Shown: positions 3,769-56,000 of the stretch, piece by piece | Layout: each line of letters opens with the position of its first letter | How positions within the stretch are numbered: position 1 is the first letter of the stretch | Source of the DNA: Eledone cirrhosa | Lineage: Eukaryota | NCBI GenBank assembly: GCA_964016885.1 | Contig: OZ024743.1 | Coordinates: 358,670,001 to 358,734,000, forward strand | Direction: 5' to 3' | Length of the DNA: 64,000 nucleotides | Position numbers and translations under genes: made by a program | Notes under the pieces: model-generated | Seen by the model: the letters and a program-made list of their open reading frames with translations, nothing else | The model's database searches: none | Told to the model about the DNA's origin: nothing

Positions 3769-3839
3769 TATATATTTTATTATACATATTTCAAAGGTAC
3801 AATGGTGTTTCAGTACGTTTTCATCAGATAAAATATATA
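3769..3839 (-). ncRNA. Type I hammerhead ribozyme motif (Penelope pLTR)
   Basis: TATATATTTTAT-CTGATGA-AAACGTAC..GTACCTTT-GAAA-TATGTA-TA-ATAAAATATATA; 12-bp stem I, intact core. Confidence 0.75.
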
Positions 3840-5081
3840 AGAGATTGGTTAGACGACATACCACTAAGGTATATATATTGAACTACTTTTTTGTCACAAC
3901 CTCCCAAATTACCAACCCCGTATCATTTTGTCTTTAGAATTTTAAATTTATTGCAATACGTTTACCTTAGACATGTTAATCTCCGGATTTACCAATATTA
4001 ATATAAATTTTTAGGCATAACCGTCAACATAATATTACAAATAAAAAGAGAGAAAAAAAAAGAAAAACACACACACATACACACAACCAGGTACACACAT
4101 CTAGGACCACATTCAACAAAAGGCAGGCGAAAAGAGTTGACAAACGAACTACTGCCAGAGCGAAAGATAACAATGCTTCTAAAAAAAAAAAAAAAAAATC
4201 TAAAAAAATGCTTCCAAGGTTAGAAAAAAAAAACAAACTTTTGTCAGATATGCATTTATTCATACACATATATAATAAACTAATCGCTATATAGTGTTCC
4301 AAGTATCATAATTTATTTCAAATATGAAATATATTACAACTTATAGATAAATATTCAACCATCTTATAAGAACCCCTATCTCTTTGTCTTTGATGCACAA
4401 AACAACAAAAATATGTTCTTTTAATTTTCGTGAACTCTTGACATTAGGGCCCGAAATAAGAACACGAAAACATCTCAGTTTCACCGGATCCATTGAATTA
4501 AGGTTTGGGTTAGTGTTTCTTTCATGGCTTCTTGTATATTTATGTATAAGCGGAGCATGTGAAATGAATTCGGCGAATGTGACGAGATATTCTTACGGTT
4601 TATTTCGAGCTCCTTTTATAATTTTGAATTATTGAAGTTAGAATTTATGGATAAGGGGAAATAATAGTTTTGTTTCTATTGTTGCGTCGGAATTGTAATC
4701 AGGAATCGAAACTCACAACTTAATTTCAGTAATATTAATCCTTAAGAAATGCAGCTGGTTATGTAGATTTCTGATAACAATCTTTACCATTTATTAGGAT
4801 AAACACACGCATGTTGTTATTAACATTGCTTAAAAGGTTTATTCTATATCAACAGTGGAACTATATCAGCGACCAGGTCGCAGACAGTACGACGAAAATT
4901 TTGATAGCAGGAAATAAATATAAAGTAAAAAGATTTTGTGTATTTTTAATAACTAAAATGTCTCTTCCACGCTGTTCCACGCTCTTTCACTTGCCAAAAA
5001 GTTCGAAATCTACATTATCAACAATTACTGTAGAAACTACTAATATGTAAATGAATCCATATATATATGTATATATATATA

Positions 5082-53000: not shown

Positions 53001-56000
53001 AGGAAGAATGACACCTTTTCTATGCCTTTCTATTCTTCTTTGTCTGCATGTTGACCTGCAGTCTATATTTTTCTTTTCTGTTTTTCTATTTCTCTCCTCT
53101 CTCTATTTTTTCTCCTTTGACTAAGGCACAAAAACTGTAGTAATTTTCAGAGGTTGACTGAGATGAGACTCTTAGTTTTTCTGTTGTTTTTTTCTTTGTC
53201 TTTGTCCTGGGCATCCCCTCCCCTATTTTCACTTCCAAAACATAGCTATGTGGGCTTTTTTTGAAACTTTAATATACTGTAATAATAATAATATACTCCC
53301 GTATGAGCAAGACAAGGTCAGCCGACCAGACACTGCCCACAACAGGACAACCCGTCTAACCCATGCTAGCGTGGAAGAACGGATGTAAAACGGTGATGAT
53401 GATGATGATGATGTACATATATATAATCCAGGCCGAAACAAATGAGATCGTGTAGGTGTCACGACAAAAAAAACACACAGTCTACGCTGTAATGTGGCCG
53501 TGTAGGCAACACGGTAAAAATCTCCCAGTCCCACACTGTAAATGTGGTTGGTGTTAGGAAGGGCATACAGCTGTAGAAAACCCGCCAGACAGTCCACGCT
53601 GTAATGTGGCCGTGTAGGCAACACAGTAAAAACCTCCCAGCCCCACACTGTAAATGTGGTTGGTGTTAGGAAGGGCATCCAGCTGTAGAAAACCCGCCAG
53701 ACAGTCCTATGCGAGCAAGACAACCACTCTTGCCTCAAGTGGGAAAACTTCCGTCCAAACCCATGCAAGCGTGGAACATGGACGTTAAACAATGATGATG
53801 ATGATGATGATGATGATGATATATATATATATATATATATATATATATAGAGAGAGAGAGAGAAAAGGTGGAATTGGAAATAGCATGGAAAATATATTTA
53901 AGGATCTGTTATACTTTTTTTCATCTTTGATTCGTCAAAGTGACATTATGGAAAAGAATGAGAGGAACAATTCTTTAAAAAAAACAAGAAGTTTTATAAT
54001 GTATATAAGATATATAAAATATAAGCGGTTTTGATGTATCAGTGTGAACCATCTTATCAAATGTTGAATATTACAATTAAAAAGAATTAAAAAGAATTAA
54101 AAAGAATAAAAAATCTTTAAGATTTAAAATTAAGTGTTGAAAAGGTCTGTTCATCTTTTTTGTTGTGTGTGTGTGTGTGTATACATATATATATATAATT
54201 ATATATATATATATATATATATATATATATATATATATATATATATAAGTTATATTTAATTTGTTGGGATACAACAAGCAAATATTTTTATAACTGATAT
54301 AAAGCACTCAACAAATTATTGGAGTAAATATACAATATATTAACAAATGGAAACTATATTTATAAAACCATATTTATTTCATTATACATATTTCAAGGAC
54401 ACCAAAGCAAATTATGGTGCGCTTTCATCAGATAAAATATAATATAGATCAGTTTTATAAACAAATATTGACGTACCCTTAAAGAATGCGACCATGTCGG
54501 TTGGAGGCTCCCGGATAGTGGGGTTACTAATTTTATTATTGGTCTATTATGCAAATTAGTGTTGGAGAGGTTTAAATCCCAGTACATTTAAATTAAGCCG
54601 TTGGAATAGGGAAAAAAAGAAAAAGAAAAAGAAAGAGCAAACCCAAAGAAGGAAAACAAAAGAAAGAGAAAGAGAGAAAACCCTAAGTGAGAGAGTGTTG
54701 TATTAACGTAATTTATGAGATGATGAAGCGAAAAAATAAATATATAGTGGATGAATTACGCGGAGTAAATAAAGCGTGGATAAATAAATAAATAATAATA
54801 ACCGGAGAATTTTATGTAATGTTTAAATTTGATTAAATGTTTAATTTATCAATTAAAAATGTCAGTTAAATTATTGAGATCTATAAATTAAAAATTGAGA
54901 TCTATATATTGTTAAAAGAATATATACACATATATATATTATTAAAAAAATATTATTAAAATATATGTTATTATTACATAACCATATATAAATTTATTAT
55001 TAATAATCATCAACCAACAATTAATTATTAATTTTTCAATTAATTATCAATAAAAAATAATAATAAATAAAAAATTTTATGTTTAAAATATAGGAATGTT
55101 TCTAAACCCATGGAAATTCAGAGATTTTACCGAAGAATAATCTCTTCTTCGTTATAGCAATACAGCGTGAAGGAAATTAAGTGATTTATTTGTAATTTAG
55201 ATAGCTCTAAGGATTAAATGTTATCAAGGTTAAGATGATAAAAAAAGTTAAGATTATAAAAAAAATCTTATATTATTTTATAGCAAGTTATAATTTTATA
55301 AATTTTATATATTTTATAAATCCACCTGTTATACAGTTGTGACTGTTAAAATATAAGTTTGTTTACTATAATGTCTTAATGTTTAAAGTTTTTCATAAGA
55401 ATATATCTAAAGCATAAACCGTTTATAAATTTGTTTATAAAACTGATCTATATTATATTTTATCTGATGATAAAATCCCGCCGAGGTTGACTTTGCCTTT
55501 CATCCTTACGGGGTCGATAAAATAAAGTACCAGTAATGCACTGGGTAATTGCTGGCCTTGTGCCTAAAGTACAAACAATTATATTTTATCTGATGAAAGC
55601 GCACCATAATTTGCTTTGGTGTCCTTGAAATATGTATAATGAAATAAATATGGTTTTATAAATATAGTTTCCATTTGTTAATATATTGTATATATATATA
55701 TATATATATATATTATTATTATTATTATTATTGTTATTATTGGTAGAGTGTCAGACACCATGCTTTGCAGCATAGAGTTACGACCCTTTACATTACGGAG
55801 TCGATAAAATAAAGTACTAGTAATGCATTGGAGTAATTGCTGGCCTTCTGCCAAAAGTAGAAACAATTATTATTATTATCAGGATTCATATGCACAAAGA
55901 TTCATTGCACAACTTTAGGTTACATGACAAGTATTCATAATGTTTTTCATATAAATAATATTGAGAAATACTTATTTTATCTAATTCTAGACAAAAGAAT

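Follow-up and report, generated by a model that had tools for sequence, protein, structure and literature searches.

What are the small palindromic sequences, each with the layout of a minimal hammerhead ribozyme, that recur beside runs of (TA)n in a 64,000-nucleotide stretch of the Eledone cirrhosa genome (contig OZ024743.1, C4:358670001-358734000)? An initial annotation of this stretch, called the window below, had listed 18 such sites in eight families unrelated in sequence, and had proposed that they were either non-autonomous ribozyme retroelements or truncated ends of Penelope-like elements (PLEs), mobilised by a PLE enzyme that targets TA. The families were lettered A (sites 3769, 9973, 13505, 54374 and 55581), B (5179), C (6683 and 9133), D (6889 and 51330), E (9696, 36150 and 40300), F (15443), G (26931 and 27400) and H (27740 and 40530). 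It is very probable that seven of them (A-E, G and H) are the 3' ends of seven distinct protein-coding PLEs, and that F is a closed hammerhead unit of about 320 nt without an open reading frame (ORF), which shows the same insertion pattern and is likely copied in trans by a Hydra-type enzyme. The second of the two proposed options was therefore right for seven families, which have their own ORFs, and the first holds for family F only.

Hammerhead motifs in the window and in the genome

The window (G+C 36.5%, with abundant (TA)n) was searched with a relaxed type I descriptor, which accepted either C3-G8 or U3-A8, tolerated A at core position 4 and allowed the first core strand to be 8 nt long, and which was written after the families were known and is tuned to families A-H. 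Eleven matches were obtained, compared with a mean of 0.02 and a maximum of 1 in 100 block-wise dinucleotide shuffles and with none in the reversed window; a stricter descriptor gave 8 matches (0.02 in shuffles). The type I layout had been ascribed to each of the families. Ten of the 18 sites pass the descriptor at the positions listed (3769, 9973, 13505, 54374, 55581, 6683, 15443, 26931, 27740 and 40530; the last two only through the A allowed at position 4), while the other eight are damaged, truncated or half-motif copies, the whole motif being present in other genomic copies of the families concerned. The eleventh match, at 51718-51775 (-), had not been listed and defines a ninth family, I. 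The reported association with (TA)n was borne out, as 10 of the 11 matches lie within 160 nt of a (TA)4+ run, a distance at which 32% of random positions are found. The Rfam search returned no hammerhead above threshold in the window and a single one below it (HH9, 15426-15501 (-), 22.5 bits against a cut-off of 52, E 0.47).

Genomic copies were counted as exact pattern matches (reversed-pattern controls were all 0), which are not equivalent to insertions, since inverted and tandem copies are counted twice and diverged copies are missed. Families A-H are dispersed through the 3.0-Gb genome (1,796 contigs), with 240 to 36,039 matches: 29,979 for A, 240 for B, 5,173 for C, 26,088 for D, 36,039 for E, 12,414 for G and 30,611 for H, and, for F, 114 with the strict ribozyme pattern, 1,565 with the unit junction and 6,295 with the downstream block. 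For each family the first 30 loci returned, nearly all on contig 1, were studied. In the whole ribozyme of family B, the first core strand measures 8 nt, stem II has 6 bp and helix III is palindromic; that of family D combines U3-A8 with a long stem II and a stable helix III of 5 bp. In families E and H, stem II has 3 bp and is closed by U.U, which is also seen in published Hydra hammerheads (PMC8557442 File S2) and counts as a tolerated mismatch (PMC3088659). In family H, A at core position 4 is the master state, because 16,109 matches carry it compared with 56 that carry the canonical U. Section 8 of PMC3088659 names U3-A8 and U10.1-U11.1 among tolerated variants and is silent on U4A, and a literature search on U4A hammerhead variants returned nothing relevant.

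The covariation of core and stems that the initial annotation had asked for was seen in stem II of family A and in family F, there including the exchange of C3-G8 and U3-A8. Among 28 copies of family A, both sides had changed in five of the eight stem II pairs, and 96% of cells were paired as opposed to 40-54% in slid controls, counts that are not independent of ancestry and are inflated by related copies.

Penelope-like reading frames and fold-backs

Long copies of the seven families run into coding sequence, so that the question raised earlier, whether any family is ever attached to a PLE ORF, can be answered positively for all except F. For the window frame of family A (10512-11741), a first look at the genome gave about 101,000 candidates, and a sense hammerhead follows the ORF match by 1.16-1.43 kb in 14 of 30 loci, within a reach of only 1.5 kb; in three loci (L298, L299 and L293) the full order of ribozyme (the pseudo-long terminal repeat, pLTR), inner end, tail and ATG was found. 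An endonuclease lies upstream in 15 of 20 loci of family B, for which only its C-terminus was available, and is linked to family C in 13 of 20 loci, in addition to a GIY-YIG remnant in the window. Four of 30 loci of family D reach its own endonuclease (710-aa frame in L275/L301), and three of 30 of family H are contiguous with an ORF (501-aa frame). Loci with the 758-aa frame of family E have the ribozyme just upstream in 10 of 10 cases and also 2.4-4.0 kb downstream in 9 of 10, and in family G the ORF link holds in 19 of 20 loci, with recurrent intact 775-aa frames. Full-length copies read hammerhead, inner end, tail (equal to the 5' untranslated region, UTR), ORF, 3' UTR and hammerhead. In family E the 2.4-4.0 kb 3' UTR, largely TA/TG microsatellite, belongs to the element (L413-L422).

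These links bear on the idea that all eight families are non-autonomous ribozyme retroelements served by one helper PLE. The (TA)n target common to all would agree with it, as would the shortness of most copies, which lack an ORF (depending on the family, only 0-7 of 30 loci had a sense ORF match in the 1.5 kb upstream); nevertheless, seven families continue into an ORF of their own, the position of the 5' end varies, and intact frames of 758 aa (E) and 775 aa (G) recur, which makes a single helper very improbable. Because each family runs into its own reverse transcriptase (RT)/GIY-YIG ORF, these are seven autonomous PLE families and not one helper with passengers, and the frame at 10512-11741, cited earlier (as 10602-11741) as an example of the mobilising enzyme, belongs to family A only. 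Families A-E, G and H were also considered as closed ORF-less tandem retrozymes, a candidate rejected on the grounds that their long copies continue into a 3' UTR and an ORF.

In the frames of families A, D, E and H (741, 710, 758 and 501 aa; 38-52% identical to each other) the RT is followed by a C-terminal GIY-YIG domain in one ORF (YRDD and Y[IV]G), with a CxCX5C linker in all four, SDKT in place of DKG in A, D and E, an RWK-like motif in the same three (RLRWR in A and D, RIRWR in E), and neither GxKF nor CxxC in the endonuclease core; the frame of H is without an N-terminus. Together with insertion at (TA)n and the 3' hammerhead, in which H deviates at core position 4, these traits correspond to the Hydra clade, described as having a C-terminal GIY-YIG without CCHH, CxCX5C, DKT, a (TA)n target and a 3' hammerhead (PMC8557442). 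As in Neptune/Nematis PLEs, the 775-aa frame of family G has DKG, GxKF, a CX4CxxC linker and CxxC in the GIY-YIG domain, and family C has a similar, decayed endonuclease. Pfam detected GIY-YIG in the family G frame just below its cut-off (E 1.8e-4, 22.2 bits against 22.6) and detected no Hydra-type RT or endonuclease in the frames searched, and a homologue search gave 31 database proteins at 31-42% identity without informative names. According to the published clade definitions (PMC8557442), A, D, E and H, as well as B by its fragment, are Hydra-type PLEs, and G and the decayed C are Neptune-type, an assignment made by motifs and not by a tree, in which Neptune and Nematis are not told apart. 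Family G differs from known Neptune/Nematis elements in a separate 409-aa upstream ORF1, which overlaps the 775-aa RT-endonuclease frame (L326:1288-4754 and L327:1232-4695); the latter has no start codon, and a programmed frameshift is possible. The many intact copies suggest recent activity of this family.

Inverted arms were counted with TA matches masked, and 30 of 240 loci were dropped as overlapping, leaving 210 distinct loci. An inverted arm within 1.5 kb was found on the 5' side in 84 of these and on the 3' side in 3, while 126 had no 5' arm, with frequencies from 1/30 (family C) to 15/21 (family G); the inverted duplication that had been attributed to most of the elements is thus borne out only in part. 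Arms measure 18-577 nt with a continuous distribution of lengths, their outer ends cluster at one site per family, and the distance to the terminal (TA)n clusters at one or two values per family. Short copies have a fixed 3' end at (TA)n, variable 5' cut points and a tail on one arm only, and in A, E and G the stretch between both ends corresponds to the 5' UTR of the next unit. An inverted 5'-truncated copy with a tail at one end is the published insertion pattern of PLEs (PMC8557442, Fig. 2 legend), and the fold-backs of the seven families are this pattern, not miniature inverted-repeat transposable elements (MITEs).

If they were MITEs or fold-back DNA transposons with TA target duplications, carrying hammerheads incidentally, the palindromic look, the TA flanks and the fixed sites of both outer ends would be accounted for. 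The continuous arm lengths, the 126 loci without a 5' inverted arm and the one-sided tail are at odds with such an origin, and any target duplication is unreadable inside (TA)n; the long copies, moreover, encode RT and GIY-YIG, which refutes it for the seven families and leaves it hardly any credit. Fixed terminal inverted repeats with a DNA-transposon pattern, which the initial annotation had named as evidence against its own view, were not found, the arms being variable and the tail one-sided.

In five fold-backs of the window, the inverted arm is predicted to base-pair with 31-48 of the 38-53 bases of the ribozyme. Because most ribozyme bases would thus be engaged with the opposite arm, the fold-backs would not be working ribozyme units and such copies would be inert. 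One mechanism that may underlie the pattern begins with RNA of more than unit length (read-through or circular) that would be cut by paired hammerheads; GIY-YIG would then nick both strands of (TA)n, RT would prime at two TA-like sites 45-100 nt apart, and both cDNAs, usually stopping early, would join head to head to give a fold-back. Short copies would be inactive from the moment of insertion, their ribozyme being locked in the hairpin. For PLE hammerheads, cleavage as dimers and a part in processing RNA longer than one unit have been proposed, and their activity in vitro is weak (PMC4209133).

Family F, a retrozyme-like unit

Family F consists of a closed ORF-less unit of about 320 nt (304-327 nt), found as monomers to trimers, and resembles no PLE end among the loci examined. 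Its copy in the window (15314-15792 (-)) comprises a full 327-nt unit without an ORF (15314-15640), a partial upstream unit (15648-15736) and a short inverted arm (15741-15792), and the type I hammerhead at 15444-15488 (-) has a U3-A8 core, a palindromic helix III and an extended stem I reaching about 15420-15513, with predicted cleavage 3' of 15448. A truncated 3' fragment (83%) lies at 27566-27663 (+). Upstream of the ribozyme, the tail is followed by the end of the previous unit, with no long UTR. From 46 distinct loci, 45 insertions were scored: 43 have (TA)n at an end, 28 have a 5' inverted arm, and the direct arm exceeds 330 nt in 22 and 375 nt, more than a unit plus tail, in 15, with no 5' flank shared among the 45. 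A PLE ORF was found within 1.5 kb upstream in only one of 60 loci, where it belongs to a separate insertion. By its sequence features (a small tandem unit within the retrozyme range of about 170-400 nt, one type I hammerhead per unit and no coding capacity), F is a retrozyme-like element. Variants of F are abundant in two contig runs of one sample, data that have no bearing on expression.

Subfamilies only 72-77% identical are still closed units. In 62 copies picked by their flanks only, the core pair was U3-A8 in 50, C3-G8 in 6 and mixed in 1, with another core change in 5; stem II occurs in seven different fully paired variants. Several palindromic versions of helix III exist, and in another set the first pair of stem I has changed from U-A to C-G in 6 of 23 copies. 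Because the ribozyme is kept by compensatory change without any ORF to protect, this points to selection on the F RNA. In computed folds of the window copy, the hammerhead form of the monomer is less stable by 4.4 kcal/mol than an inactive fold whose palindrome ties up the core, and the unconstrained minimum of the dimer is a double hammerhead (-97.1 compared with 2 x -42.6), so that the computation predicts an inactive ribozyme in the monomer and an active one in the dimer. The RNA could then cycle at unit length, perhaps as a circle, and cleave only as a dimer.

That F might instead be a deleted PLE end, copied passively in larger transcripts or by DNA duplication and with a relic ribozyme, is suggested by its appearance as a tail joined to a 3' end and by a minimum-energy monomer fold that is not the hammerhead. 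Such a relic is unlikely, as the diverged subfamilies remain closed, with compensatory changes that maintain stems I-III and the 3-8 pair, and the insertions are dispersed, have up to three units in the loci seen and carry their own inverted arms and tails.

A short hairpin at the start of the tail, RCT(C/A)...GAGYVC, follows the inner end in 25 of 71 copies of A, 6 of 28 of B, 28 of 76 of D, 16 of 42 of E, 5 of 39 of H and 38 of 79 of F, denominators that include copies without a tail, and is absent from G (0/76) and C (0/41), with a background of 2.3%. By eye, it was also recognised in the published consensuses of Hydra-2_Amil, Hydra-1_Ajap (twice at the 5' end), Hydra-2_Ajap and Hydra-1_Crog, and was not seen in that of Hydra-1_Obim; the main-text passages of PMC8557442 do not mention it. 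As the hairpin is common to F and Hydra PLEs, F is probably moved by a Hydra-type enzyme. A fuller proposal can be put forward only tentatively, at somewhat less than even chances: F would be a circular-RNA retrozyme, moved in trans by an enzyme of the Hydra clade and gated by its monomer-off, dimer-on ribozyme, with the RCTC...GAGYRC hairpin at the tail start, shared with Hydra PLEs of a coral, a sea cucumber and a copepod, as the cis signal.

Several observations weigh against the interpretation of seven PLE families and a retrozyme-like F, in addition to the shared ancestry behind the covariation counts and the motif-based clade assignment. The ribozyme with which family H has spread may be weak or inactive, cleavage by minimal PLE hammerheads is poor (PMC4209133), and only one of nine Xenopus retrozyme dimers was cleaved in vitro (bioRxiv 10.64898/2026.07.22.740005). 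The copies picked by pattern (the stem II set of family A and the stem I set of family F) have fixed cores. F keeps the GAGCAC half of the hairpin with only 3 of its 4 pairs, and the motif was widened to admit it. A parent of F with an ORF, if rare, could have escaped the sample of 60 loci for 6,295 matches, and the same 1.5-kb reach finds an ORF in only 1 of 30 loci in A and 0 of 30 in E. Finally, a natural tandem of F with mismatched palindromes (L333) did not adopt the double hammerhead in its computed fold.

Arrangement in the window and relation to known elements

From left to right, the window begins with a family A hammerhead at the 3' end of a Hydra-type PLE (3769-3839 (-)), with predicted cleavage 3' of 3781 and the tail hairpin at about 3714. 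The family B fold-back (5091-5320) has arms at about 5091-5253 and a tail to (TA)n; both hammerhead copies are damaged, site 5179 by G12>A and a G at the cleavage position. A decayed Neptune-type GIY-YIG remnant (5691-6134 (+)) precedes the minimal hammerhead of family C (6683-6718 (+)), whose element ends at (TA)n 6817. A second family C end (9056-9624 (-)) faces the first, to which it is 87-88% identical; it was inserted separately and has a mutated core (site 9133, G8>A and G12>A). Between them lies a family D fold-back with an 80-nt tail (6851-7040) and only the 3' half of the hammerhead; another D fold-back with tail (51292-51481) also has the 3' half only, mutated. Family E is represented by a fold-back with tail (9635-9805) whose core at 9703 is whole and whose stems are mismatched, an end with tail and mutated core (36140-36275 (+)), and a fragment truncated inside the ribozyme (40300-40348 (-)).

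The 5'-truncated Hydra-type PLE at 10343-11741 (+), with RT, GIY-YIG and the CxCX5C linker, has its open frame at 10512-11741, interrupted near the end, and pieces of 3' UTR to 13434. It is preceded by an inverted, 5'-truncated family A end with tail (9835-10303 (-); hammerhead 9973-10033), and at 13435 its 3' UTR is joined to a family A hammerhead of a different subfamily (13505-13576 (+)) that ends at (TA)n 13620. Further family A ends are found at 54250-54443 (-), with tail and hammerhead at 54375-54439, and at 55578-55688 (+), with hammerhead at 55582-55646 and 99% identity to the arm 54325-54443. Two family A ends, at 13435 and 55464-55581, break off in the first strand of stem I or a little way into the core; the sequence then passes in one case into the end of another subfamily and in the other into a fragment resembling a short interspersed element (SINE), after which the family A end restarts. 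The fold-back of family G, a Neptune-type PLE end (26794-27513), has arms at 26855-27155 and 27213-27513, a tail at 26794-26855 and U3-A8 hammerheads at 26931-26968 (-) and 27400-27437 (+), the second with one stem I mismatch. Family H provides a hammerhead-shaped motif with A at position 4 at a Hydra-type PLE end (27740-27790 (-)) and a fold-back (40365-40600) with the tail on the left arm and the motif at 40528-40580 (+).

The family I hammerhead (51718-51775 (-)) has 81 matches in the genome; at its loci (L423-L442) two 3' ends occur and the tail hairpin has a long loop, with no ORF within 1.5 kb in 20 of 20. Two other hammerhead-like motifs with a canonical core, outside families A-I, occur near F copies (L337 and L338). 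The window thus contains only some of the hammerhead families of this genome. The short piece at 51520-51642, flanked by TA and with an ACTC...GAGTAC hairpin at 51581, is probably the tail of a further PLE family. A second closed unit, with a tRNA-Ser-like gene and a period of 260 nt (39569-40260; related copy at 13636-13935), gave no hammerhead match and lies between TA runs, with a 306-nt inverted arm, a direct arm of more than a unit and a tail; ARAGORN placed tRNA-Ser-like genes at 39654-39726 (-) and 40053-40125 (+) within it. This unit looks like a ribozyme-free passenger of the PLE machinery. A long interspersed element-type RT (16467-18560; Pfam RVT_1, E 3e-26), with truncated relatives at 26076-26750, is unrelated to the hammerhead families, and a 49-nt tandem array (24854-25451) is joined to an abundant SINE-like repeat.

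PLE hammerheads, scattered truncated copies, opposite-strand pairs, the U3-A8 variant and the targeting of (TA)n by Hydra elements have been published before (PMC8557442, PMC4209133). The hammerheads of the present families, of type I and with a short palindromic helix III, mostly in single truncated copies and some opposite-strand pairs, show no difference of kind from these, only the number of co-resident families being high. None of the eight equals that of Hydra-1_oBim, the only cephalopod family listed in PMC8557442. Compared with the values given there, family E has 4.7-6.3 kb between hammerheads as against "generally <3 kb", and tails measure 45-100 nt as against 30-40; D differs from Hydra PLEs in its U3-A8, long stem II and stable helix III, and H in its A at position 4. 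Non-LTR retrozymes resemble F in a 300-330-nt ORF-less unit with one type I hammerhead, in monomers to trimers, whereas the 5' inverted arm, one-sided tail and (TA)n target of F are not reported for them in the accessible text of the two papers concerned (PMC7229834; bioRxiv 10.64898/2026.07.22.740005). Elements such as MRC1 of the Chlamys group (PMC8557442) are likewise ORF-less and form pLTRs and head-to-tail copies; unlike F, they are green-algal, need a clade with N-terminal endonuclease in which hammerheads are mostly missing, and share 3'-end similarity with their partners.

A literature search, for which most subscription papers, Repbase and the bioRxiv supplements were outside reach, found no earlier report of these families or of the tail hairpin. 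As far as searched, the families and the tail hairpin are new, and so are the occurrence of A at position 4 in a family of high copy number and the combination, in one retrozyme-like unit, of the full PLE insertion signature with 3-8 covariation inside the family.

About 150,000 pattern matches in one genome are accordingly PLE ends and not MITEs, as which annotators would mislabel them. Family H, having spread with A at position 4, offers a test of whether PLE hammerheads are needed. The case for mobilisation of animal retrozymes by PLEs has been built on co-occurrence and pLTR similarity (PMC7229834; bioRxiv 10.64898/2026.07.22.740005), whereas F carries the PLE insertion signature itself, along with apparent selection on its ribozyme without an ORF. 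An in vitro system for the tandem and inverted structures of PLEs is named as the next need in PMC8557442, and F, short, non-coding and with a candidate cis hairpin, is a simple substrate for such a system. If F is indeed moved by a Hydra enzyme through the hairpin, a natural substrate of 320 nt would show, from insertion anatomy, the mobilisation of retrozymes by PLEs, and the unexplained mechanism of tail and inversion would become testable through F.

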